Positions 1-58,400 of a stretch of DNA of 64,000 nt are shown piece by piece. The notes beneath the pieces are model-generated. The model did no database searches. It was given only the letters and a program-made list of their open reading frames with translations, and was not told the DNA's origin. Origin of the DNA: Obrimoposthia wandeli (lineage: Eukaryota); NCBI GenBank assembly GCA_977020255.1, contig CDROCS010003925.1:1-64000 (forward strand). Direction: 5' to 3'. Made by a program: the position numbers and the translations under genes. Position 1 is the stretch's first letter; each line of letters opens with the position of its first letter.

Positions 1-110
1 TTTACCTTCACAACTACAAAATGTAAACGACCCGTGTCATGCCCTAACATATTTACCACCCGTCCCTTCGGGACGGGCTTCATTCTTGATCTATAGGCAC
101 GAAAAAACAT
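1..110 (+). repeat. Left terminal inverted repeat (partial; continues left of the window)
   Basis: Reverse complement of 1-110 aligns with 12947-13053 at roughly 90% by eye. Contains the hairpin CCCGTCCC-TTC-GGGACGGG (59-77). Confidence 0.92.
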
Positions 111-3801: not shown

Positions 3802-3901
3802 GAGAATTGACAAAATATACCAATCTTATCATGAAAGTACTTTGTTATTTTAATAAATTTTTTCGTTATAAACAACGCGATTGCTGCAAATTTAGATAAT
3901 T

Positions 3902-4390
3902 ATGCAGGAATATATCATAGATTTTGAGGTTTTCATTAACAAAAATGGTGATTATATTATAAAAGAATTATGTATTATGGATGTATGCAACGTTTTTCAT
4001 CCTTTGCATTTCATATTTAAAATATATATACCGTTTAAAAGTTTAGATTATAAGAAAAAATTTACTAATTTATATCTAACTAATTATTTTCATTTATTAA
4101 AATGGAAAGAAGGACATAAGGCTTTTTGTGAAATATGTATTTTCGATACAATAAAATCTAATTTTGATATTGAAAATGGAATTTTTTATGTTTTAGATGA
4201 AATGGATGGCAAAAAATATAAGACTTTAAAAAAATATTTTTCTAAATTGAGATTGAATACTTTAAATATTTCACGTGATCATCTATTAAAAATTCCAGAA
4301 AATATTTGCTGTCCATATCGCATTCATAGTGACCATTGCGCATATAAAATATGTTTAAGTCTTTCTTATTATTACTTGACATGTAGATAA
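3902..4390 (+). CDS. DEDD/RNase T-fold exonuclease-like small protein (162 aa)
   Basis: N-terminal IIDFEVF...YIIKELCI (ExoI-like DxE), central YFHLLKWKEG and C-terminal CCPYRIHSDHCAYK, a pattern I associate with small exonuclease-like ORFs of invertebrate Polinton-type elements. ORF is intact. Confidence 0.6.
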   Translation: MQEYIIDFEVFINKNGDYIIKELCIMDVCNVFHPLHFIFKIYIPFKSLDYKKKFTNLYLTNYFHLLKWKEGHKAFCEICIFDTIKSNFDIENGIFYVLDEMDGKKYKTLKKYFSKLRLNTLNISRDHLLKIPENICCPYRIHSDHCAYKICLSLSYYYLTCR

Positions 4391-4605: not shown

Positions 4606-7093
4606 ATGACTATGGTAAGAATCTATACTTATTATTTCCTTATTAATATTTATTATTTCAGATTACGTGTAACCTATTCCCTGCGTATTGTGGTGCTTCG
4701 GCTCCGCATGGAGGAGAGTCCTGCATGGAGACAATGTCTGCATACTACCGGACAAAGTCTCGCGGGCTTCACTTCTTCGTCTGCCCCTTCTGCAGAACAA
4801 TGGAGGAGAAGGAGTTTCGAGACTTATTCTGTGAACATCGAGCTCACCTATCGTGTTTCACGGCCAACAACAAGAAGAGGGATATCGTGCAATTGGTGCG
4901 CGATTCGCAGGCCGCTCCACCTCCAATTCCAGTTGCAGTCGATCAACCCTTTTACGGTCCTGCAATTGGTCTCCCGGCTCCTGATTCTGCCCCATCCACT
5001 CAAATGTCTAACAATGAGTGGATGAATGACATATCCCAGTCAGATTTCGAGATAGAGCAGTGGAGCAATAACTCATGGTTGGAGACCATCGAGGAATCCG
5101 ATTTCGTCGAGATATCGGACGACAGCTGGATGGATTCCATCAATGAAGAGGACTTCATTCCAGCTCAACTTGGATTGCCTTCATTAGGTTTTTTTTTTTT
5201 TTTTTGTAAAAATTATATATTTTATTTTTATTTTTTATTCAGGAAATACCGTTCTACAATCGTCATCTGCTACAACAGATATGCCTCCACCATCGCGAGT
5301 GCCTACATCGATGTTAGCAAGCCTTAGAGGTAATAATTTTACAAAATATATTTATTTTTTAATATATTTATACAGCACTAACCTCTACAACAGCCGCTTC
5401 TTCGTCGGCAAGATCAGCGGTCCCTTCAACATCAGCTACAGTTGCCTCAACATCGGCAGCATCAACAATAGCAGCAGCTTTCACATCAGCTGCAATTGCC
5501 TTAACTATTAATATAAATAGTTGTCTTCCCGTTCAATTAGGGGGAGGTTTGTCAGCGACAAACGAAAGAAAGAGGCGAGGCCAATTTCTTAATAAGGTCC
5601 CACCCAAAAAACGTAGAGAAAACGGTGTTACTATAGAGTATCACCTAAATAATAAATATGTTATAGTTAAGGTGCCATTAGAAAATGAAATTTTAATAAA
5701 CGTAGGTGTAGATTCAAATATTGAAAATCTTTTAAAATCAGAAGTGACTAAATTAGGACAGGCTAAGGTTCAATTTTGCGCAACAGTGCAGTTTAAAAAT
5801 GTCAATGAGGAAACTAAAACTTGGGTAATTTCACATAAAGCAACTGTTTTTATGATAATTTTGTAACTGAAATTGGAAGAAACCTGGATGAAAAAATTGC
5901 TAATTATAGCGAGTTAAGTAGTGGATGGACTCTAGTTAGAATTCACGATGTTAGCTTTGTTCTAACAAAGTTCACTGACATGATATATCTTTCGGGGAGT
6001 TCATACATTCCTTCACCTAGATCTCTTCAACTTTCACGTTCCATTGTTAACGTACAAAACAGTGATAACCTTTGCTTTCTGTATAGCGTGTTGGCCATCC
6101 TCAAAAGGGATGTAATTACTGAGCATAGAGAGCGTGTCAGTAAATATACCCCTTTTTTAAATGAATTGCAGTATCATGGAATAATTTTTCCTGTTAAATT
6201 AACTGCGATATCAAGATTTGAACATCTTAATAACTTGAGTATTAATGTATTCAAATATAATACTGATATCCCAGTTAATGTAGAAATATTTAAAAATCCT
6301 TTTGTAGATGTAATTTATAGGAGCAAAAATGAGGAGACTCAGGTCAACTTAATTTTGCTCGAACAGAATAATAAATTCCATTATGCTGCAATTCCCAGTT
6401 TAGATCGTCTTCTAAATTTAGATAATGGAGCCTTACCGGTTAGGATAAGGTGTAAGTGGTGTCATAGATGTTTGCATGGATTCCGATCCGAGCTCTCTTA
6501 CAGCAAACATCTGACATTATGTTCACTGAATCCTGATGACAATACGCTATATAGCATGCCTAAGGATAAGGATTTAAAATTCAGGGATTGGGCAAAATGC
6601 ATACCCGTGGAATTCAGGGTGTATGCAGATTTTGAGTCAATTTTAGCATTGCACGACCAGTATGAGAGTATTCACCTACCGGCTTCGACAGGACTACTAT
6701 TCTTAGGCCCCAATATTACTCAGTATCATAAATTTTCCGGTCCAAATTGTATTTTAGATTTTATGTTAAAATTAGAGGAATTAGGAACAACAATTGTCAA
6801 ACCGTGGTATGATCTCAATGCTCATCAAGCAATGATCATGACAGGCATAGACTGGGTTAATTTTAATTCTTGTAGATTATGTTATTTGTGTGGAACCCAG
6901 TCTAAGTTAGTCAGAGATCACGATCATGTTACGGGGCGATACTTGGGAGCGGCGTGCAACCTCTTTAACATTGGCCGTCGTCTCCCTAAAAAACCACGTA
7001 TAACTGAATTTGAAAGTGTAAGTCTTCAAGACTATAAATTGTCTTATGTCTTTTATTATTTTACCCTTATATTTTTAGAGATTTAAAAAATAA
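4606..7093 (+). pseudogene. Spliced pPolB-derived gene: RING-H2-like + acidic Trp repeats + S/T/A linker + pPolB N-terminal region + ExoI + EndoVII Zn module; no polymerase core
   Basis: Exons 4606-4614, 4662-5187, 5243-5329, 5376-7017 and 7079-7093 are phase-consistent, with one frameshift near 5850. Motifs SSGWTL..I, SGSSYIP, IVNVQNSDNLCFLYSVLA, HYAAI..L.RLL, WCHRCLHGF..HLTLC, VYADFES, CYLCG..VRDHDHVTGRYLGAACN are typical of Polinton pPolB N-terminal halves. Confidence 0.85.
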
Positions 7094-7123
7094 TTCAAAA
7101 TAAAACATTTAAAATTTTTATTT

Positions 7124-7492
7124 TTATAACACACTAATTGTTTTGCAACGATAACCAACGATAATTTTTAGCTTCTTTTTACTTTTAAATCCACTACCTC
7201 CTTGGCTTTTATTTGATTTGCGTTTTCTAATCAAATTAGCAACTTCAGGTAAAACATTATCAAGTTCATCAAGTGCATGCTTCTTAAAAGTTGGTATTAG
7301 TTTGTTGTCCTTTGATGAAAGGTAATCCTTTCCTAATTTTGATATAAATCGCCCGAGGCTCTTTAAAAGAGGAAAGGCAAATCTACCTAATGTTCTAAGC
7401 CAGCCAGATCCGTATTGTTTACCAACAAAATATGGTAATTCTCCACCTTGTTGGCTTTGACTATAAGCTTCAATTATTGCTGGATTCGCAAT
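7124..7492 (-). CDS. Conserved Polinton small virion-type protein (PZ/PW class, amphipathic, QxGG motifs), ~122 aa; not in the ORF track
   Basis: Hand translation: (I)ANPAIIEAYSQSQQGGELPYFVGKQYGSGWLRTLGRFAFPLLKSLGRFISKLGKDYL...SQGGSGFKSKKKLK...VL*. Starts at ATT overlapping the penton 3' end, probably a mutated ATG. AATAAA follows the stop directly. Confidence 0.75.
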   Translation of the reverse strand: MANPAIIEAYSQSQQGGELPYFVGKQYGSGWLRTLGRFAFPLLKSLGRFISKLGKDYLSSKDNKLIPTFKKHALDELDNVLPEVANLIRKRKSNKSQGGSGFKSKKKLKIIVGYRCKTISVL

Positions 7493-8527
7493 TTTGTTTT
7501 CTTAAATGTATTGTTAAACTTGTCTTGGCCCCGTACGTGAAATCTATTAGTTGTCCGGAATCATCTCTAATATTTACTTCAATATTGTTTATAGAAAAGA
7601 GAGAAACTGGAAGATACATTGGTTGATCTATACACATACCGACAGTGTCCCCATCTCTAGTTTCATTTTTAGATATCCATATTGTTCTCAAAAGTGGAAC
7701 TCGCTGTCCTCCTACAAGCGTTGGTTCTATTAAATTAGTATAAATATATAAATGATTAACAGCATTTAAAAGTTTTGCCTTATTTTTAGCTTTTATGGTT
7801 TTTATTGTATGGGTTTCAAAGGTATTTCTGTTTAAACCAAGGTTTTTAGCGAGTTTATCATCAAATGAAACTCGTTTTATATTGCTCTTTACTGTAAACG
7901 TTAATTTACCATTTAATGTTTCACATTTATCCAAATATTCACTACATTCCTTCTGTATTAATTTACAGAAATTCACTTCACTATCTATTTTATAATCTTT
8001 TGAAAATGTTTTCAGTTCCACTACAGTCTTTGGTCTCGTCTCAAGTAACAACACTTTTGCTACTCTACCAGGAACATTTCTAACCGAATTAGATGAGATA
8101 ATATCCCGTTTATTACGAGCTACTGTTTGTTCACTATCAAAACTGAATTGAAGAGCTTCTTTTTTAGATTCAAAATTAATTTTAATAACTTGAAGAAATT
8201 TTAATCAATTTTTAAATCTGACTTTGTTATTTTCAAATATTACTTTCACTTCTTTATCACTACAATTGTAATAGAATTGTCCTTTACTATCAAACCCGAT
8301 CACAACTTCAGTTGTTTTTTCATGATCAACTTCTTTGTAAATGAAATATGTGAGTTTTTTTTGATAGTAATTGGAGAATAATAAAAAGAAAATTCTGTTA
8401 AAGCCGCTTCCCATTCTCCTTGGAGATTTATAGAATTTTCCCAATCGATAATAAAGCTACTAGCGTCATTATCTGGTTGAGTCTTCGGACATCCGTTACT
8501 TGGTAAAACCATATACATAGAATTCAT
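7470..8527 (-). pseudogene. Minor capsid protein (penton, PX-like), frameshifted
   Basis: N-terminus MYMVLPSN..PDNDASSFIIDWENSINLQGEWEAALTEFSF and C-terminus HLYIYTNLIEPTLVGGQRVPLLRTI..PMYLPV..INNIEVNIRD.SG..IDF..TSLTIHLRK are characteristic. Split over ORFs 8300-8527, 8205-8444 and 7470-8054. Confidence 0.85.
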
Positions 8528-9552
8528 ATTATTTTAGATGCTGATATCCAAGTTGGGTCTGAATAACCATGCCATTTAACAAAGTATTGTTTATGTTTAC
8601 CTGTACCCTTAGATTTTAATATTTTTTGAATACGGAAAACGCTAGGTTTATTTGATATTACTTGTAGTTCTTGCTCGTAAAATTTATCGTGAACGATATT
8701 ATTGTCAGCATCTTTAATAGTATACATTATTGGATTACTCTTTTGATCAATTTTACTTATACAAAATATTTCATCACTCCAATTCTGATCAAAGTTTTTA
8801 ATAAATGGAGTAGAGCTAATTTTCGAAATTCGAACATATTCGTTTTTCTTATATTTAGCTTTTTTAATATTTTCTTTTTTATTCCTGTTCATCCAAATAT
8901 CTATAGAATTTTTATTAGTAACATCAACAGGTCTCATTCCCTTGAGACCTCTATGTTCCAAGTGATTATATGCATGTATTATTTTAGGTATAACTTGGAT
9001 CCATTTTTTATTTCCTTCTTTTGTGAAATACTTTTTTATTCGATCTCTTAAAGTACGATTAAATCTTTTTACTACTGCTGCTTTATACTGTGAAAACACA
9101 GAGTAGTGATTTATATTATTTTGTTTAAATAATGATTGAACTTGCTTATTATAAAATTCTTTTCCTAAATCAGTTTGCACATTTTGTGGAATGTCCTCTT
9201 TTAATATTTCTTTAATGGCTTCAAGCATAGCTATTAAAAACTTTGCTTTAACTGGAATTGCACGAGCAAACCTGCTAAATACATCAATACATGCTAAAAT
9301 ATATCGATATCCCTTATTAATGGAAGAATATGGGATCATCTCCATCAAATCCATTTGCCATAAATTATTAGGACCGCTGGTTTTGTAATCTCTAGTTGGA
9401 AACCTTCTTCTCATCGGCTTGTTCAGACTGTACGCTAACTGGTCGCTCAGCCATTTCTGAGTTTTCTTGTAATTTTGTTTTGTTCTTTTTGCTAATTTTG
9501 AAACTCCTGTGTAGCCAATTGGATCTTTTGGATTGAACCATATCTTCTCCAT
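8524..9552 (-). CDS. Polinton retroviral-type integrase with C-terminal chromodomain; third catalytic residue appears E->K
   Basis: MEKIWFNPKDPIGY start; LWQMDL (D1), ILACIDVFSRFA, VQTDLGKEF (D2), AAVVKRFNRTL (K where ERFNRTL is expected); chromodomain QYFVKWHGYSDPTWI. Stop overlaps the penton ATG (ATGA). Confidence 0.92.
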   Translation of the reverse strand: MEKIWFNPKDPIGYTGVSKLAKRTKQNYKKTQKWLSDQLAYSLNKPMRRRFPTRDYKTSGPNNLWQMDLMEMIPYSSINKGYRYILACIDVFSRFARAIPVKAKFLIAMLEAIKEILKEDIPQNVQTDLGKEFYNKQVQSLFKQNNINHYSVFSQYKAAVVKRFNRTLRDRIKKYFTKEGNKKWIQVIPKIIHAYNHLEHRGLKGMRPVDVTNKNSIDIWMNRNKKENIKKAKYKKNEYVRISKISSTPFIKNFDQNWSDEIFCISKIDQKSNPIMYTIKDADNNIVHDKFYEQELQVISNKPSVFRIQKILKSKGTGKHKQYFVKWHGYSDPTWISASKII

Positions 9553-9638
9553 TACAACAATTTGAATAGAAAGAAAATTTAAGTTTAGGTAAAGAAGGGC
9601 TAGCACCCATATCTTTAGCTGATTTTAGAAATAATTGT

Positions 9639-9969
9639 TTATGAACGTGTCGCAGCTATAATACTACTGATAATTGAAGCAACAACTGGAATAACAGCCC
9701 CTATGAAACCGCCATTATGTTTAAGAATAATATTTCGTTTCCTTTTTTTACTTTTTACATTAGCAATATCTAGAAGAGTTTTTCTATATTTCTTTAATAT
9801 ATTTTTCCGATTTCCAACTTTTACTCGACCCAAAACTATATTATACAAAACTTCCAATAAATCATCTACAACAAAGGATGGAAATGCTTTAAGAATAATC
9901 ATTCTCTTATTAGAAGAGGCTTTGACTAAAGCTTTAAAATAGGGTATGCTTTTTTTATATTTTCTTCAT
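9639..9969 (-). pseudogene. Conserved Polinton small basic protein ending GGF + hydrophobic helix (PW/PZ class)
   Basis: ..KALVKASSNKRMIILKAFPSFVVDDLLEVLYNIVLGRVKV..KRKRNIILKHNGGFIGAVIPVVASIISSII. The likely ATG at 9969 is out of frame across an A-run. Confidence 0.75.
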
Positions 9970-10172
9970 TTTAATAAAAAATGTTTAATTTAAATATTGT
10001 TTATATACGAAGGCATTTAAGTCTTTTTTATTTTTAATTACTAATTTGATTTATTTGTATATTTGTATTTTCTTAATGATCTTTTTTTTATTTCTTACAT
10101 ATTACTTTACGTTTTACTATCAACTTTGTAAAAGGCATTGCGAATTTATTTTTATAATTGTTCTCTATTTGT

Positions 10173-10789
10173 TTATAAACAGTTACTCCCTTTAGAATTA
10201 AATATGTCTGTTAAAACACGTAAATCATCTGGGCAAGCTTGTGTAAAGTCAATAAATATATACCCATGTGCTTGTTTAGCAGCATCGTGGAATGAATCAA
10301 CTAGAAAGTTCTTATTTTGAGGAAATGCCTGTCTGGCCACAAAATCAACAACTGTTTGATCTCTAGGATTTTTAAATAAAACTAAGTAATGTACATTAAG
10401 ATTTCTTGTTCTATGGTGACCTCCTTGGTGAAACAGATTTTGAGTGATAAATATAACTGTAACTTCACGATGTCTTGCAATCTTTGTAAATAAATTATTA
10501 AAGTCCGATTCCTTGTTAGCCTCCTCATACAAATCATCAATTATTATTACATCTTCTTTTTTTCAATCTTTCACACCAATTTGCATCAAATCCTTCAATA
10601 AATTTTATACCCTTCAACTTACAAACTTCTGTTTTGGTTAACCCGCTTTCCTGCACCATGATGCCAATAAATATTTTTGAAACAAGATTTGAAAAGAGAT
10701 TCATTTTGCAACAATTTACAGACGAAATGTGTCTTTCCACTTCCACTTGGGCCAACTATTTGAAATACAGCATTATTATTTAGCTCCAT
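10173..10789 (-). pseudogene. A32/FtsK-like genome-packaging ATPase, two frameshifts
   Basis: MELNNNAVFQIVGPSGSGKTHF (Walker A), VIIIDD (Walker B), FTKIARHREVTVIFITQNLF, RTRNLNVHYLVLFKNPRD, AAKQAHGYIFID. Three different frames are needed to read it through. Confidence 0.9.
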
Positions 10790-10864
10790 TGCATATACTC
10801 TTTCATTTTTAATATTGTTTATATTATCATAGAAGTTTCCTTATTGAAATGTACAATGTTAGAG

Positions 10865-11098: not shown

Positions 11099-11126
11099 TC
11101 AAAACAATAAGTTTAAACGGGTTTGT

Positions 11127-11625
11127 TTATAGAAAAGATAACAAGATGTAATAAGATATATTTTCTAAAATAAAATCAACTATGTCTGGATAATCAAAAT
11201 TTTTCAATCCCAATATCATAACTTTACCACTGGAAAATATATTTACACATAGCGGTTTAAACTTCAAATAACTGAGAGCAGGAAAAATTTCTGGTTCAAA
11301 CATGCATTCTTCTTTCATTTTCTCTGCAGTTTTAAAAAGATTTATCTGTTTCCCGAGATTAGCCGAAATCGTGATTGATTGTATTGCAGTGATTTGAATT
11401 CCAAATGGTAAATTGAACCTAAGCATTGGTATTTTGCATCCCATAACACGACAATTTCCTAAAGAATTCAATATGAAAATAAAATAAAAACTAACCTGTA
11501 GGAAAAATAACAACTGTGAAATTGTCAAACTTTTCTACATATTGTCTCGGCTTTCATTCATTGAATGGTAAGTACGAAACATCATCTTCTGTTCTACCTT
11601 TATAATTTATATTTACGAGTTTCAT
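11127..11625 (-). pseudogene. TATA-binding-protein-like gene (2 exons, ~153 codons, one in-frame TGA)
   Basis: Exon 1 11625-11496, intron 11495-11459 (GT..AG, 37 bp), exon 2 11458-11127. Translation MKLVNINYKG..PFNE*KPRQYV..VVIFPTG|NCRVMGCK..IQSITISANLGKQINL..CMFEPEIFPALSYLKFKPLCVNIFSSGKVMILGLK matches both TBP pseudo-repeats (LIFxSGKxVxTGAK; YEPELFPGL). Confidence 0.8.
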
Positions 11626-11654: not shown

Positions 11655-11832
11655 CTTTATATATGTCTGAACCTGATTTTTTATTGCACGTTTCTTGTAA
11701 TTATCTTGCAAACCTATTATAATTGGATGATATATTTAGTCCAATCAAATTCAATGCTTAGTCCATTCAAATTCAATGCTTAGTTATATTAACCAATGAG
11801 ATTCATGTCTTTGTTAGAAATTAGTATAAAAG
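11655..11832. promoter_or_regulatory. Bidirectional promoter between the TBP-like gene and the paralog pair
   Basis: Minus-strand TATATAAAG (11663-11655) with CCAAT (11726-11722); plus-strand CCAAT (11793) with TATAAAAG (11825); a 22 bp tandem duplication tagtcca(a/t)tcaaattcaatgct at ~11737-11780. Confidence 0.55.
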
Positions 11833-11862: not shown

Positions 11863-12339
11863 ATGCATTCATATCAAAGACAATTATCAACGATGGACGA
11901 TAGCCAACGGGTATTAGGCGATGACGAAGAAATGTTTGAAGAATCGGATAAGGATATGTATGAAGAAGTGAAACAATATTTCCAATACAAAGTCAGATTC
12001 TTGAAGAAGGCTCAACTGATTGCTTTAGTAAATCCTGTGACAATTGAAAGAAGAAAGTTCAGCTACTATCTATCAGGTATTCAAAAACCTGATTTTCAAT
12101 ATCTTAAACAGAAAATAGAAAAGGCAGTTCCGAATTTTACTTTCAATAAGAACGAATTTTATATCCGAGGAGCCGATGAAGCATTTCTAGATGACTATGG
12201 AAGATATGTTGATATTGATGCGTTTCCGAAAAAGAAGCAATGGACTGTAACAATTCGACTTTATGGTTACAAGAAAGATGAAATGGGAACAAAGTTGCCT
12301 ATGTGGAAAATTGAACGTGCTCATATTTCTATGTTTTAA
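11863..12339 (+). CDS. Hypothetical protein A of a tandem paralog pair (possible OB-fold/SSB-like)
   Basis: Intact 158 aa ORF with an acidic N-terminus. Aligns by eye with 12485-12877 (LK..Q.I...NPV.I, DF..LK, F.DD.G, W...IRL.GY..D, P.W....A). The fold is an inference. Confidence 0.65.
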   Translation: MHSYQRQLSTMDDSQRVLGDDEEMFEESDKDMYEEVKQYFQYKVRFLKKAQLIALVNPVTIERRKFSYYLSGIQKPDFQYLKQKIEKAVPNFTFNKNEFYIRGADEAFLDDYGRYVDIDAFPKKKQWTVTIRLYGYKKDEMGTKLPMWKIERAHISMF

Positions 12340-12484
12340 CTTTTGTGTGTAATAAATTGTAATCGGTTTTACTATGTTTCTTTCATTTAATAATCAGTTT
12401 TATTTGTATCTTATTTGTATCTTATGTGTATTTTTTATAAAACATTGTTTTTAATCAGTTTCCTTATTTTAGAATGGATAAGAG

Positions 12485-12877
12485 ATGTGTAGCAAATTTT
12501 ATTATCCAGAAAGAATTTCAAAAGGAAAACTATGTAATATATTAAAGAGGCATCAAATTATACGAGTTATGAATCCTGTGAAAATATCAAAAGTGGAGAA
12601 AAAATATCTCATCGAAATTTTAACAACAACTGATTTTGATCAACTGAAAAATATTTTGGGATTTTACATTCCTGATTATGTATATGAAGGAAATTGTTTC
12701 GAGCTTGAAACTGATCCCAGTCTGGATTTTAAAGATGATCTAGGATATTTGATTGCTCCAATTCTAGATGAAGAACTATGGAATATCTCAATACGTCTGA
12801 ATGGATATTTTGCTGATGACGGGAAAATGCAGCCTCTCTGGACTTTAAGTGAAGCCAATATGTTGTTTTATGTTTAA
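12485..12877 (+). CDS. Hypothetical protein B of a tandem paralog pair (possible OB-fold/SSB-like)
   Basis: Intact 130 aa ORF sharing the motif series with 11863-12339, followed by AATAAA. Confidence 0.65.
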   Translation: MCSKFYYPERISKGKLCNILKRHQIIRVMNPVKISKVEKKYLIEILTTTDFDQLKNILGFYIPDYVYEGNCFELETDPSLDFKDDLGYLIAPILDEELWNISIRLNGYFADDGKMQPLWTLSEANMLFYV

Positions 12878-12946: not shown

Positions 12947-13113
12947 ATGTTTTTCGTGCCTGTAGATCAAGAATGAAGCCCGCCCCGAAGGGACGGGTGG
13001 TGTATGTTAGGTTATGACACGGGTCGTTTACATTTGTAGTTGTGAAAGGTAAAGTGATACTGTAGCGCATGTTTTTTGTAGTTATTTTCGCGAGAATGGA
13101 GCCCGCCCCGACG
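12947..13113 (-). repeat. Right terminal inverted repeat (runs into the assembly gap)
   Basis: atgtttttcgtgcctgtagatcaagaatgaagcccgccccgaagggacggg...gtgaaaggtaaa mirrors 1-110. A second copy of the gaatg(a/g)agcccgccccga motif begins at ~13094. Confidence 0.9.
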
Positions 13114-13263
13114 NNNNNNNNNNNNNNNNNNNNNNNNNNNNNNNNNNNNNNNNNNNNNNNNNNNNNNNNNNNNNNNNNNNNNNNNNNNNNNNNNNNNNNN
13201 NNNNNNNNNNNNNNNNNNNNNNNNNNNNNNNNNNNNNNNNNNNNNNNNNNNNNNNNNNNNNNN
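13114..13263. other. Assembly gap (150 N)
   Basis: Run of N. It hides the right terminus and TSD of the Polinton. Confidence 1.
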
Positions 13264-13272
13264 CTCCATTAG

Positions 13273-14228
13273 TTTGCAAAGAATCACTCTGACTACTTTA
13301 GTTCACGAAGAAGCACTCAGACAGGAATACTTCGAGACGCAGCCGCCATCTCCCATCTTCAGAAGCCGCGAGAAGTGAGAGGAGTAAATTTTATATAAAA
13401 AGATAAATTAATTCTTGGTTATTGCAGAAAAATATCAGAAGAGCAGAAAAATTCGGAACTACAGATATTCAAGTTAGTAAATTGGGAACTACAGATATTC
13501 AAATTAACAAATTCGGAACTACAGATATTCAAATTAGTAAATTTGGAACTATATATATTCAAATTAACAAATTTGGAACTAAAGATATTTAAATTAGTAA
13601 ATTTGGAACTACTGATATTTAAATTGAACTGGTGAGCAAAAAACACAACTTACATAAAGTACATTTTGAGTAAAGATGAATTTAATTTTCAAGTACATTA
13701 TTGAGTAAAGAAGAATTTAATTTTTAAGTACATTTCAAGTAAAATACGTTTAAATTTGAAGTATATTTCAAGTAAAATACATTGAATTTTACGTACATTT
13801 CGAGTCAAACGACGTTAGTGAATTAGTCGACAATAACATATTAAATTAAAGAGTTAGATAGACGGGTAGAAAGGCACTGGGAATAATTTGAAGGGTGATT
13901 ATAGCAGGAGGCCTGTAAAAGTATACGCATATAAAAGTGTCAACCCTATTGTGTTTTCTGTAGTAATTTGAGGAAGTTTTAAGTGTACTAACTTAAATAG
14001 TTATTTTAGCGAAATCAATAGAAGATTCATTCCGAGTTAAATTCTCTGTGAAATTCGTGTGCCCCTAAAATATAGATTAGCTGAGTGACAACCAACAAGA
14101 CAATATTGCAGGTGCTGACAGATTCAGATAAGTATTGTCTACGTCAATTGGTCCCGGTTCTGTTTCATCGATATTCGATCTTGATGTTGCCAGACCCTTC
14201 CGACATAAAAGCTAACTCAGCTGAATAA
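13273..14228 (+). CDS. Last two coding exons of an unidentified host gene
   Basis: Exon 13273-13374 (AG/GT, phase 0-0, FAKNHSDYFSSRRSTQTGILRDAAAISHLQKPRE) and terminal exon 14112-14228 (VLTDSDKYCLRQLVPVLFHRYSILMLPDPSDIKANSAE*). Both are GC-rich islands like other host exons; AATAAA at ~14455. Confidence 0.55.
13449..13628 (+). repeat. 30 bp tandem repeat x6 with alternating variants (60 bp higher-order unit)
   Basis: aaatt(c/t/g)ggaactacagatattcaa(a/g)tta(gt/ac), with unit ends alternating ttagt and ttaac. Confidence 0.9.
13656..13810 (+). repeat. Degenerate ~32 bp tandem repeat x ~5
   Basis: Recurring aagtacatt(t)..(g/a)agtaaa..(g)aatttaa.ttt. Confidence 0.7.
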
Positions 14229-26600: not shown

Positions 26601-29600
26601 CGAAATTCTCTAATCGTGTATGGTTTTTGCAGGCTCATTTCCTCAGATACAACGTTTACTATTATTTCTGTTGAGTTTATAAGGCAGCTGAGACACTGTG
26701 GGCGGGGTGTATGCGTACCTCAAAGGTACACAGCACATGAAACAATAGAACATCATTTAACATCTAAGTAGTAAAGCTCTTTACTGTACACTTAATAATA
26801 CTTGAAAACAGGTATCACAGGACATGTTGTTAATTAAATATTATGATATCATATTATTGCTATAGTAAAAAAAAAAAATACTTTTATTTAATAGAGTTTA
26901 TGTATTAGTAGTCTTTTTTAATATTGTTTAGGAAATTTAAATAAGACATGTTAAAATTATTTTAATCCAGATAATAAAATTCAGATCTAACCTTATTTAA
27001 ACCATTTTATTTGACAGTTAAGATTTACGTTCTAATTAAATATAGATTCAAATGTATAATCTTTGTTGACATTACCGCGTGTATCTTTTCCATGCACTAT
27101 CGGGGCTTGTGCATTCACAAGGAGGGCGATATTATTAAAGTAAGTAAATACATGTAACCTTGATATCACGACATTTAATGGACTGAGAAAATCGCTTCGT
27201 CATATTGCGGCTTCACTGTATTATTAAATTATTATTATTTTAGGCCCCCATGACATATAATACGTCTGTTACCCGTCGTTAATTATCTTTCTTACCTTCA
27301 GTTTGCTTTCAATGGACAATTATGGACATTCCCAAAAGGAATTTAACTAAACATTAAACACAACGAATGATTTTTTTGTTTAATACTGATTTAATTTTTA
27401 CCAGGAACAACAAATTGCAGCAACTAAATAGCTTATTTCATTCTAACCTGAATTATGAACTGGTCTCGATGTTTATCTAATTGAAATCGAGCCAGACAGA
27501 ATATCGTGCTACCAGATAGTTATAAATACATCATTTTTTTGTACTTCAAGCCTGTTTTAGTTCAAATTTTGTCGATGTATATGAATATTTTATTAAATAA
27601 GTTTCAACTAAAATTTACAAAATACAAAAAACAGAATTGGAAATATCGATATTTTTTTCAAAATACACATGATAACAAATACAGGGTGTCCTATTGAATT
27701 TGAACTATTTCTTATGTAAATAAAAACACACAATTTTTAATAAATATTGATTTTTATATTTTATAAAGTAAGGGTTTTTATTTTATTATACAAACAATAT
27801 ATATAATAGGTTATTATGGAAAATATCGATCGTGACATCATAATTTTATATTAGGAAAGTAACAGGAGTATAATTTCGACTATTAGAGCCTACAATAAGA
27901 AATATAAATTGAAGTACAATATCTTTGATAAAAATAAAATTTGGAGAATAATAAAGAAGTTTGAAATTGGAAATTTAAAATTAATTCGAAAAATGGGAAG
28001 TGGTGGGAAAATGAAGTGTCCAATGGATTTTTACTTCTGGGGATACCTGAAATATAAAGTGTATGAAAAATCATTTAACTCATTGGATCAATTAAAAGAA
28101 AGAATTAAATTCCTTATTGAAGAAATAAAACTATTAGATTTCGAAAAAGTGATAAAAAATGTACCGTTAAGACTTAGAGCAATTATTGAACAAAATGGCG
28201 GACATATTGAACATTATGATAGATTTATATAAATCCATTTTTGTCTACAATCTGTTTATTAGTGTTTTTATAATATATATTATATTGCTTTGTGATTTTA
28301 ATTTATAATAGTTTGTTTTTCTGTGGGACATCCTCTATTACCGACTCACCCATAATACCCTCTCAACCTTAAAAGCCTTCAAATTCGAAGCACAATTTTT
28401 ATCGACATCCACACCACTTAATTCAGTTTAATGTTCTAATTTCCTTGTTATTTACACCATGATCCTATTTATTCTCTCGTTTTACTCCTTCTCTGTTACT
28501 CCGTAACTTAGGCGAAAAGTTAAATGCTGTGACTTAATTTCAAATAGAATTGTTAATAAAATCGAATTAATTAAATGAATAATGATGAAGTTGATGATGT
28601 GTGTGATGATCGTAGTAATACCTGAAGGCAAAATGTAAAAAGGAAAGAACTGATTTGGAATAAAATTTAATTTATGTAATAGTATCGAATAATATTGATA
28701 CATTGTTTGACATAAAACCGTTGCTAATTTAATTATCAGAAAAGCAAGTAAATTAAAACAAATTCAAATAAATATATCGCCAAGAACATAATCAAAAAAC
28801 AATCCCACAAAACAATCAACCACAACAACAACTCGACCACTGTAAATAAACCACAACAACTACTCATCCCTTTTGTTGCTCTTCCCACAATCCGAAACAG
28901 AATAAACTGACACATATGTGTTTGAATAACCTCGGTTTCAGATTCCTTTTTTATTGTTGGGATCCATAAATTCAAAATTGACTAAAGCTTCTAACATTTA
29001 TTAAAACCTTGACTTCAAACATTGTGGTAAACAAAAATTGATATTGTTTTTGAATTGTCAATTGTGACAAGACAATGTCTGCCTTGTCTATTTATAAAAA
29101 ACAACTCCCATATTAGACTTAAAATTTAAAATCTTTTAATTATTTTAATGCAATTTTAATTGTAATATATATAAATATATATAGTTTTTCGTTGTTGTAT
29201 TTATTGAAAAAAACATCAAGTTGCATTGTGAAAACTCTGAAGTTACCGTGTGGCAAAAATAACGTAAATATTTACTATGAAGACTTTATTTTATTTACTT
29301 ACAAAATTTTTTGCTCTTGCATTAAAATAGAAGCTTTTATTTGTGACTATGTACCACACGGATGGAACACATCAAAACTAATCCAAAGATTAACTGACAG
29401 AGAAGCCCAATCCAGAACGCACAGACCAGAAATGCCAGTCTTAGAAACTTTCTTAAGCTGAAAAATACGGCAAATTGCCACCTGTTAAGGGTAAATCAAG
29501 CATCAAGAACTTCTCAAATCGTATTAAGATGAGACATCCCTTGAAAAGGTTTGATGATAAACATTAATGTTAAAAAACCCACCACAATTAGCCTTTTTGA

Positions 29601-55400: not shown

Positions 55401-58400
55401 AAAAAGTCGTTAATTAATAAATCAAAAACGTTATTAATATAAAAATCGAAAAGCACAAATATTGTTAATATTCAGTGCTATAATTCACTAGTATTTAGAC
55501 AATTAATGTTATTTTTAATTTTTCTACAAAATATTGAAAAGTTAAACTTAAGTTAATCACAAATATATTACTTATACATTTATGTAGTATATTATACAAT
55601 ATTTCTATCTTATATTTCAGACAAGTTGAGAATTTTGAACCTCATGAAAAAGACACAGACATTCATTTGGAAGATGAAATCATTGAAAATATTGATGTCA
55701 CTGAAGCAGTGGTGATGACTGATGCTGATCGTCCAGGCCTTGAAATTGACGGAGTAAGGTTCCGTGTGGGTGACGCCGTTCCAGACGGGAATAACCGCGA
55801 AGTACGGAAGATATTCAATGTAAGCAGTCATCAGTATTTTGGGTGATAATTAGTCTGTAAAGTGCTTAACTTTTTAATTATACTTAGCTTTTTAATTAAA
55901 AAAAAAGATTATTCAATGAATTTTTTGTTTGTTTTTATTTTTCATGCCATTTGAAAACCTTAACGAACCTGTGTGCTATTAATAATATTTAAAACATATT
56001 TTTGTATAATATTATTCAAATGTTTAAAGTGATTAATTATAATTAATTACTAATTAAATAAAGTATTGCAAATATGGCAATAACGTCTTATAAATTACCC
56101 ATGAACAATTTTACACACCAATAGTTTACACATGTAACAAATAATATAATTTCAATCTAAATACAATATATTTTAAAAGCAGTAAAACAGTATACCTCGA
56201 CATTGACGGTCTGAAGTCGCGTTAGTTATGAAAATATTTTGCTTGTGTGAATATTTTAGATAATTTGATCTACATAAAAACACGAAATGCTGTGTTCCTT
56301 CAAAATGATATTTCTTACGCTTTTGGAAGTTGTGAGTGTTGTGTGTATGTTAAACTGGGCTGCTCGATGGCTAGTCATCAACATAATAGAAAGTCTGTCT
56401 TATATTTTGAAGGAAAGGCTGTGTATTACAAACCCAATAATTAAAATTTAGACGGTTCAGGCATTTGAAGAAGAAAGAAAAAAATATTAGTCTTCAACAA
56501 TCAAAAGACTATATGACTACTTATTCGAGAATATGTCGTCATTAGAAAGTTATTCTTAGTTAAGTGTCTTTCTACAAATCTTAGCCTTGATATTTACTTT
56601 CGCTTTTTTAAATATGTAACTAACATTTAAAATAATTTAAATTAATTGCAGATAGTACTTTTTGAGCTGTTTTTTTGGCGCAATTTACACACCATTTATT
56701 GTAATTTGTGATTATTATTCTAAATGCAGAATTTAAACTGTTTAATAAACGAAAACATAACGTATTTTCTCATAAATAATACTACACAATAAATACATTT
56801 GCTGAAAGAGTACCCATACTTATAAAATTTAGAGAGTTTACATGATTTTTACAATATGTAATTTGGTTAATCGGAACACTTTCTGAGATGTACCTATTTT
56901 TAACATTAGATATTTGATTAAGAACTGTAGTATTATCGTCACAATATACATATGTTCTGTGTATTAAATTGAATATTTATTATACATTTGTCTTATTAGT
57001 TGAAAATCATACTAAAAAGAGTATAACATATGTATTTCAAAATTAATTAACAATTACTTTGTTTAGAAAAACCTTTAAATATGATTTAACCAATCTATTA
57101 ACGCAAAATACATATAGGGAAATATATTTCCCAGAATTTTTTCAAAAGCCTTTAGATCTTTTTTAGAGGGGCTTCTTAGAGGATTCAATTCAAACAATAT
57201 TTTAGGGGAATTGGAGATGGTAAGCAGATCCATCATAACATGTAGTTCATTTTTCATTAAAACTAAAACTGAAGTTGATGAATTCTATGGTTAAAAAATA
57301 AATAATTGATCAGAAACCCTAAATAAACTGTTGTATTAATTCTTTACTTTGCAGGGATATGAAAAACATACGACTGTGGAATATCTCAATCTTCACAATT
57401 TGGGCAGTTCTGTTATCAGATTGTGGTGGATGGTGCGTTTCAAAAGATTATATATACAGGGTGTCCCATTGAATTTCAACTATTTTTTACGTAAATAAAA
57501 ACATACACATTTATTCAATTTTTATTGAGTATTGATTTTTATATTTTATAAAGTAAGGGTTTTTATTTTATTATACAGACAATATATATAATAGGTTATT
57601 ATGGAAAATATCGATCGGGACATCATATTTTTATATTATGAAAATAACAGGAGTATAATTTCGACTATTAGAGCCTACAATAAGAAATATAAATTTGAGC
57701 ACAATATCTTTGATAAAAATAAAGTTCGGAGAATAATAAAGAAGTTTGAAACTATAAATTTAAAAATAATTCGAAAAGTTGGAAGTGGTGGGAAAAGGAT
57801 AATTGATGACGATGGTAAAGGATTAGAAGACAGCACAGAAAGTATGCTGAAACAAAGTAATAATGGATTAACAAGCCTAAGAAAGATAGCTGAAAAAGTT
57901 GGATGCAGTAAAAGTACCGTACATCGTCGGCTAAAGAAATTGGCATATAGAAGTTATAGACCAATTTCTAAAAAGTGATAAAAATTTACCGTTAAGACTT
58001 CAAGCAATTAGTGAACAAAATGGCGGACATATTGAACATTATGATATATTTATATAAATCCCTTTTTGTCTACAATCTATTTATTAGTGTTTTTATAATA
58101 TATATATATATATATATTATGTTGCTTTGTGATTTTAATTTATAATAGTTCGTTTTTCTGTGGGATACCCTGTATATATAAAATTTACAATATTCGGATG
58201 GTACTTTTTAAAATTATTTTCCAAATTTAATTGACAACAGTTTTACGCTTCATATTTGCTAAATGTCTCTATTAAAAGAAAAATTAGGATAAAATAACAA
58301 TAAAAAAGGTTAGTTTTAAGTATATAATGTTTAAGATTTTAAATAGTCAAATATAATTTTGAAGTGTAACATAAAATTATCGATTTTAAGATTATAATAA

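Follow-up and report, generated by a model that had tools for sequence, protein, structure and literature searches.

In the window, by which we mean the whole 64,000-nt stretch of Obrimoposthia wandeli DNA analysed here, a TBP-like gene of two exons and 153 codons lies on the reverse strand at 11625-11127, within a 13-kb Polinton stretch bounded by inverted-repeat arms. The left arm (19..106, forward strand) is cut by the contig end, and the true end of the right arm (12950..13035, reverse strand) is probably at or under the run of Ns at 13114-13263. Copies of the same family agree with one another to about 12950-13000, after which the sub-terminal sequence differs before the common terminal repeat is reached (window 12950-13113). 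Polintons are recognized by terminal inverted repeats starting with AG and by a 6-bp target duplication, and the family copy at G000:C181 has a 148-bp terminal repeat, AG..CT ends and a 6-bp target duplication. Near the left end of the element are internal inverted and direct duplications (481-575 / 1460-1553 and 880-1049 / 2110-2278), and just outside the element is a 30-nt tandem repeat at 13449-13628. Elsewhere in the window there are two Tc1/mariner-like copies, 83-94% alike (57441-58186 and 27666-28338), with an HTH ORF at 57601-57978.

On the reverse strand, downstream of the TBP-like gene, lie an A32-like packaging ATPase (10176..10789, in two frames in the window copy, with a P-loop and a weak Pox_A32 match), a pX-like ORF (9642..9965, weak adenovirus pX match, E 0.014) and an rve integrase with a chromodomain (8524..9552, Pfam match). 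These are followed by an ORF at 7473..8533, also in two frames and without a Pfam match, which from its position is predicted to be the minor capsid gene, and by a basic ORF at 7127..7501, presumably core-protein-like, at whose end the window copy has a deletion. The forward strand carries the N-terminal part of a protein-primed PolB (5839..7086, the rest being deleted), a conserved 162-aa ORF (3902..4390) that adjoins the TBP-like gene in many relatives, and two ORFs of 158 and 130 aa (11863..12877), neither assigned to a family, that are divergent from the TBP-like gene. The deletion, at about 7000-7160, has removed the predicted major capsid gene, the protease and most of PolB; three of five whole family copies carry about 1.6 kb plus about 2.1 kb extra at window 7160-7000, and this extra sequence is the predicted major capsid gene, the protease and the rest of PolB. 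The window copy is evidently a deletion derivative, and dead.

Protein-primed PolB is present in family copies and in the related elements L057 and L088, and Pfam scans of the element ORFs found the rve integrase and the packaging ATPase. A reading in which TBP-bearing elements have no protease was wrong, since tblastn matches to an adenain-like protease were found in all four TBP-bearing families, as well as in five metagenomic loci. The predicted capsid ORFs have a fitting size (about 410 aa) and position and no Pfam match, and a 454-aa ORF in one IMG/VR element is related to them. Across TBP-bearing elements the 162-aa ORF is conserved, frequently with a place immediately upstream of the TBP gene, and it is a candidate partner; its acidic N-terminal motif is reminiscent of DEDD nucleases, and in the Atlas it matched unnamed clusters (0.96-0.97) and Maelstrom (0.86), the latter a lead only. 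For the 158-aa ORF the Atlas gave no function (best match 0.82).

The first exon of the TBP-like gene (130 nt, 11496..11625) encodes the repeat-1 Asn, the shortened repeat 1 and its second Phe, and the second exon (11127..11458) encodes the remainder of repeat 1 and a complete repeat 2 with the Glu-x-Glu stirrup and two Phe. Between them is a predicted phase-1 GT..AG intron of 37 nt (11459..11495). Exon 2 alone matches Pfam TBP (PF00352; E 4e-12, 46.3 bits against a cut-off of 22.9), a family matched by 55 of 55 relatives, and it matched 35 PDB sequences, all named as TBP or TBP fusions except for one unnamed microsporidian entry. The intron is well supported, because six database homologues, 50-54% identical, have the gene as a single ORF and those that span the region join the exon ends as one contiguous peptide, and because a 40-nt GT..AG intron occupies the same phase-1 site in locus L063 and in a second family of the same genome (family C, L115), about 50% identical. 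The first-pass annotation had obtained a protein of about 153 codons by removing this intron, had seen one TGA in the copy and had described repeat 1 as shortened; the comparison with homologues bears out the spliced frame, the premature TGA is at codon 24 in exon 1, and the shortening reappears in the fold described below. The observation of a two-exon TBP-family gene in a deleted Polinton copy is confirmed at the level of sequence.

The family is very numerous, with at least 7,239 copies counted in the 1.35-Gb genome by a 22-base exon-2 string (reversed control 0). The stop codon of the window copy is found at 155 of 7,883 sites in the genome, so that our earlier idea of a stop private to this copy was wrong; the first-pass annotation had proposed to look for copies without the TGA. 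Thirty loci were picked by a neighbouring ORF, of which 29 cover the TBP-like gene; 10 of these are open when tail indels are allowed and three when they are not, leaving 19 of 29 broken. The intron varies between 33 and 43 nt in 28 of the 29, a further line of support for it, and the remaining copy has a deletion over it. Among these copies pN/pS was 0.70 (near neutral) for private variants and 0.54 for shared variants, a pattern as expected for decay after insertion.

Four Polinton families in the genome carry the TBP-like gene, the window family included. In the other three it is about 51-53% identical to the window's gene, without an intron in two and with one in the third. In the second TBP-bearing family (G000:C408, L115:2841-3743) an IAP gene with BIR and RING domains lies directly behind the TBP-like gene, with the octamer YATAAACA, described below, before it. 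Loci L057 (222-719) and L088 (7052-7912, 8996-9397 and 11439-11852) carry ORFs of E2 ubiquitin-conjugating, KilA-N, phospholipase-A2-like and C2H2 zinc-finger types. Polintons were seen within or beside other Polintons in many stretches (G000:C219, C408, C441, C499 and C2441), which may reflect sheer density or a target preference. The host's own TBP set comprises a head-to-head TBP pair, two intronless divergent paralogues and one further spliced gene, and there are several Brf1-like genes (TBP and Brf1-like loci at G000:C238:871000-874000, C60, C1092, C968, C1245 and C1202). The core of the host TFIIB is split over exons, and Pfam TFIIB has 12 matches genome-wide against the 7,239 copies of the TBP gene.

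Relatives were found well beyond this genome. A metagenome scan gave 59 loci, 49 of which encode the element TBP family and 10 a cellular-type or other protein. The first-pass annotation had asked whether homologues are consistently linked to the Polinton integrase and ATPase: among the 49 loci, Polinton core genes stand beside the TBP gene in 15, including all four loci longer than 7 kb; 18 have only a homologue of the 158-aa or 162-aa ORF, and 16 have no match, 14 of these being shorter than 2.1 kb. The 10 cellular-type or other loci had no such match. A profile search (E up to 1e-30) returned 51 clusters, formed at 50% identity. IMG/VR queried with ATPase, capsid and integrase alignments yielded no relative, nor did a scan of phage records, and TBP alignments as queries of IMG/VR gave six weak matches, 27-38% identical, of which the one inspected is of canonical type.

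With the window copy and 19 of the 29 sampled neighbours broken, one may ask if the TBP-like gene is a passenger recently captured from the host and now decaying, and the first-pass annotation had named such a capture, or disruption of all copies with dN/dS near 1, as grounds for giving up its reading. This is extremely unlikely. Between related loci dN/dS was 0.11-0.35 in 15 of 20 pairs (overlapping pairs, four of the 20 being saturated and one having a dS of 0), which indicates purifying selection, and relatives at 40-55% identity are present in four families of the genome and in the 49 metagenomic loci. A clade with host TBPs, in which three element and three host rows were held together, was rejected (p-AU 2.45e-82), and topology test and dN/dS together refute the passenger reading. 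In a quick, unrooted LG+G4 tree with long branches (69 of 168 rows, 158 columns; host rows are single partial frames, and unnamed proteins were grouped by our own reading of the sequence), the 14 Polinton-linked rows are all separated by one branch (SH-aLRT 96) from host, eukaryotic and archaeal-like TBPs. The short forms group together on a branch (99) amid longer ones in which most of the repeat-1 linker is retained, and two of those longer forms are also Polinton-linked. The best sequence matches of the protein are archaeal TBPs, to be read with the unrooted tree and its long branches in mind. Many longer, highly divergent TBP-like proteins (P0113-P0156 and L097) also fall on the element side of the tree and may represent further mobile-element or virus lineages. 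By these comparisons the TBP-like gene is real, conserved and lineage-wide.

For the fold we used L044, a natural intronless homologue 55% identical to the window protein. A model built on a 55-row alignment reached pLDDT 97.3 and pTM 0.87, superseding an earlier fold from a 7-row alignment (pLDDT 72), and it matched human and yeast TBP at Z 14.1 with an rmsd of 2.3-2.4 over 149 aligned residues; the next non-TBP structure scored Z 6.7. The TBP-fold match that the first-pass annotation had looked to is found, for this homologue, and the modelled structure gives the element protein the two-repeat saddle of TBP. The strands of repeat 1 are present in the model, with no helix of at least 4 residues at the H2 position, and the repeat-1 linker is 17-21 residues long compared with 32-33 in cellular TBP; the element proteins measure 144-169 aa. 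Three of the four intercalating Phe are kept (in 54, 55 and 55 of 55 relatives) and the fourth, in the repeat-1 stirrup, is absent; a Phe 5 residues before the conserved Pro, present in 46 of 55, may or may not stand in for it. The repeat-1 Asn is kept in 53 of 55. The first-pass annotation had reported the three Phe and this Asn, and both are conserved across the relatives; it did not contain the change of the repeat-2 Asn to Ser, found in 54 of 55. The features of canonical TBP missing from the element protein are therefore the fourth Phe, the repeat-2 Asn and the basic N-lobe helix H2. The lost Phe and the lost Asn could make DNA binding weaker. Kept are the two Glu of repeat 2 that contact TFIIB (53 of 55 and 55 of 55). 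Pfam scans of the element ORFs found no element-coded TFIIB, several small ORFs being without an assigned family.

On the DNA face, in yeast numbering, F116, F190, F207, N69 and P191 are kept and F99 is lost. V71 is replaced by Asn (54 of 55), V122 by Arg (54), T124 by Met (55), N159 by Ser (54) and V161 by Thr (51). Three further replacements, I194 by Arg (50 of 55, where the window protein has Ser), V203 by Cys (54) and L205 by Asn (55), fall at the three residues changed in TBPm3, a yeast mutant of altered specificity (PMC1636458). According to the same paper, the 5' half of the box is contacted by the C-terminal repeat, and contacts to the 3' half come from the N-terminal one. Retention of the TFIIB-contacting Glu pair with loss of helix H2, one Phe and one Asn would also suit a decoy, or dominant-negative TBP, damping host transcription either by sequestering TFIIB of the host or by obstructing its TATA boxes. 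A decoy has no need of fixed new residues on its DNA face, but 54-55 of 55 relatives conserve Asn, Arg, Met, Ser, Cys and Asn there, and it leaves the element-specific promoter word described next unexplained, so we consider it quite improbable.

The TBP-like gene itself has an ordinary TATA box, TATATAAA, at 11656..11663 on the reverse strand, 38 nt before its start codon. The octamer YATAAACA, on the other hand, is found upstream of the ATPase and integrase genes, of the predicted capsid and core genes and of the pX-like and 162-aa ORFs; this holds for the window as well as for L057 and L088. On the reverse strand of the window it occurs at 11124..11131, overlapping the stop codon of the TBP-like gene and before a 77-aa ORF; at 10816..10823, before the packaging ATPase; at 9998..10005, before the pX-like ORF; at 9636..9643, before the integrase; at 8588..8595, inside the 3' end of the integrase and before the predicted minor capsid gene; and at 7586..7593, inside the 3' end of the latter and before the core-protein-like ORF. 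On the forward strand it precedes the conserved 162-aa ORF (3867..3874), and where the ATPase gene ends (10170..10181) two copies overlap, one on each strand. Over the whole window there is no enrichment (20 sites against 16.4 expected). Inside the elements there are 9 sites against 2.3 expected in the window, 12 against 3.0 in L057 and 9 against 2.35 in L088, and in 19 TBP-bearing stretches, two of them from one family, 60 of 166 ORFs have the word in sense orientation within 110 nt upstream, against 2.7 expected; the word was picked by eye, and the shuffle expectations take no account of that choice. Thirty-seven of the 60 sites start 30-49 nt before the ATG, and 14 start with C. The three short TBP-bearing loci L045, L049 and L078 have no YATAAACA before any ORF. 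Where the word lies inside the end of an upstream ORF, the last 45 codons write 26 of their 47 Ile-Asn pairs as ATA-AAC, compared with 9 of 105 in ORF bodies (9.8% expected), indicating that the word is held there at the codon level by a constraint on the DNA.

The fold search with the L044 model also returned rolling-circle initiator proteins, whose fold is TBP-like (Z 6.7 and 6.0), and the gene is often beside the packaging ATPase, both of which would suit a protein that binds and bends element DNA for a non-transcriptional step such as protein-primed replication, integration or packaging. Such a role is very unlikely in our estimate: the word is in sense orientation before start codons and away from the termini, the TFIIB-contacting Glu are conserved, and the rolling-circle folds score far below TBP.

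As controls we examined Polintons without the TBP-like gene. Six TBP-less IMG/VR elements, some incomplete (a seventh, duplicate element was omitted), have the word before 1 of 81 ORFs against 1.5 expected. The genome of the window also has a TBP-less Polinton family, whose copies together span its full length; there the word precedes none of 47 ORFs, and four of the copies hold 9 YATAAACA sites against 11.8 expected. A common word before the packaging, integrase and predicted capsid genes that the TBP-less Polintons checked do not have suggests that the element likely carries a switch of its own for them, with the reservation that one TBP-bearing clade is here compared with a small number of TBP-less lineages that are distant from it (PolB 31-38% identical), which makes it possible that joint inheritance of word and gene, without interaction, accounts for the link. 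In the TBP-less family of the same genome (G000:C2441:34600-52400, C1961 and C1772), TAAAAA was seen by eye directly before many start codons and is possibly that family's own start signal.

YATAAACA could also be a real promoter element that is read by a host factor, be it the host's TBP, one of the TBP paralogues or a forkhead protein, with the element protein accessory or acting elsewhere. The usual forkhead site is GTAAACA and the forkhead consensus RYAAAYA, which ATAAACA fits; TATAAACA contains TATAAA, and the host has several divergent TBP paralogues that might read it. A forkhead protein is hard to reconcile with GTAAACA before only 1 of 135 ORFs against 60 for YATAAACA, and with a purine at position 1 in just 5. 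Any host factor would have to pass over the TBP-less family, which lives in the same host and has the word before none of its ORFs. For a TBP, C is disfavoured in the 3' half of the box in yeast selections with TBPm3 and TFIIIB (PMC1636458), and the C at the start of 14 of the 60 sites also counts against this reading, which we regard as rather unlikely.

The word might instead be the promoter of a helper large DNA virus, with the TBP-like gene adapting the element to that virus's machinery, as in virophages, which are established to have promoter motifs in common with their giant viruses. Predicted folds of large-virus TBP-like proteins do match the L044 model. The gene, however, contains spliceosomal introns in three lineages, which implies nuclear Pol II transcripts, and there was no sign of a helper, for which an element equipped with its own TBP would have less need; we rate this reading as highly improbable.

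The reading that we favour is that a reduced TBP-fold protein probably binds YATAAACA and probably turns on the packaging, integrase and predicted capsid genes by bringing in TFIIB and RNA polymerase II of the host. The first-pass annotation had suggested that the family supplies its own TATA-recognition factor or a dominant-negative mimic; the first of these fits better, with the difference that the target is likely YATAAACA and not an ordinary TATA box. We infer the steps that go beyond sequence and fold (binding, TFIIB recruitment, timing and cascade) as follows. Host TBP would first transcribe the element's TBP gene, as an early gene, from its ordinary TATA box. The element protein would then read the C at position 7 of the word, its shortened repeat 1 facing the 3' half of the box. 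The N-lobe L2 and H2 form a common site for TFIIA, TAF1, Brf1/2 and Mot1 (Ravarani et al. 2020, PMC7221094), and without H2 the element protein would escape control by TFIIA, TAF1, Brf1 and Mot1 while working through host TFIIB, by way of the Glu pair that is kept, and Pol II. The result would be an early-to-late cascade, with an altered-specificity TBP acting on a private word before the late genes. A dead copy such as the one in the window could be served only in trans, by open copies.

Taking this further, we put forward tentatively, at just short of an even chance, that the elements of a widespread Polinton clade express their genes in a cascade of two steps, by means of the smallest orthogonal pair of TBP and promoter so far known. 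A single TBP of 150 residues, its DNA face rewritten and its regulatory helix gone, would read a private word and work directly with host TFIIB and Pol II, and no other viral transcription factor would take part. If so, these 'transposons' keep a regulated virion programme. If the protein is a promoter factor, an intact family protein would prefer YATAAACA over TATAAAAG or scrambled DNA, with TATAAAAA as a further comparison word beside TATAAAAG, and transcripts starting behind YATAAACA would mark cells with the late programme on. With more than 7,000 family copies in the genome, the factor could also reach promoters dispersed over many sites. Factor and word together open to test the timing of capsid genes in Polintons and whether a virus programme ever runs from integrated copies, and they would offer a natural minimal altered-specificity TBP with which to find the surfaces of TBP that Pol II initiation requires.

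The element is similar to previously described Polintons/Mavericks and adintoviruses (Starrett et al. 2021, PMC8502044) insofar as it has pPolB, an rve integrase, an A32-like ATPase, an adenain-like protease, terminal inverted repeats and a 6-bp target duplication, and it differs in that the TBP-like gene and the common promoter word are outside the canonical set. The first-pass annotation had placed the gene outside that set, which holds, although a TBP on a polinton-like map has been labelled once before: in Starrett et al. 2021 and its preprint, a figure legend on MELD viruses labels a gene 'TBP'. This label was the one relevant item found in the mainly open-access literature searched on Polintons, Mavericks or adintoviruses with TBP or promoters.

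With cellular and archaeal TBP (PF00352; PDB 5fur_A, 7o4i_O and 1mp9) the element protein shares the two-repeat saddle, the Asn of repeat 1, three of the Phe and, in repeat 2, the stirrup Glu-x-Glu-x-Phe-Pro; it differs in being short (144-160 aa), in lacking H2, the repeat-1 stirrup Phe and the repeat-2 Asn, in its conserved polar DNA-face residues and in its separate side of the tree. The TBPs of large DNA viruses (Ravarani et al. 2020, PMC7221094) are alike in being viral and in having lost the N-lobe regulatory signature, for which evasion of Mot1 and other host regulators was proposed. Most of them bring their own TFIIB and lose the TFIIB-contacting Glu, the C.L3.2 Glu being kept in about 40%, whereas the element protein keeps both Glu and no element TFIIB was found; the word 'polinton' occurs 0 times in that paper. 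The herpesvirus TBP mimics, KSHV ORF24 and EBV BcRF1, share with the element protein a virus-coded TBP fold, a polar DNA face, a TATA-variant word before structural genes and the use of host Pol II (PMC12529657). According to the same source, KSHV ORF24 is a large multi-domain protein of a six-protein complex that reads TATTWAA late promoters and binds Pol II directly, whereas the element protein is a bare domain of about 150 aa that keeps the TFIIB stirrup, with YATAAACA as its word and not a TATT motif. The herpesvirus factors are further characterized by an N-terminal domain that binds Pol II, by five partner activators and by expression after DNA replication. In the mechanism proposed here the element protein would work much as KSHV ORF24 does, without being a member of that family. 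If this is true, it would be a third viral solution, beside the herpesvirus mimics and the TBP-TFIIB pairs of large viruses.
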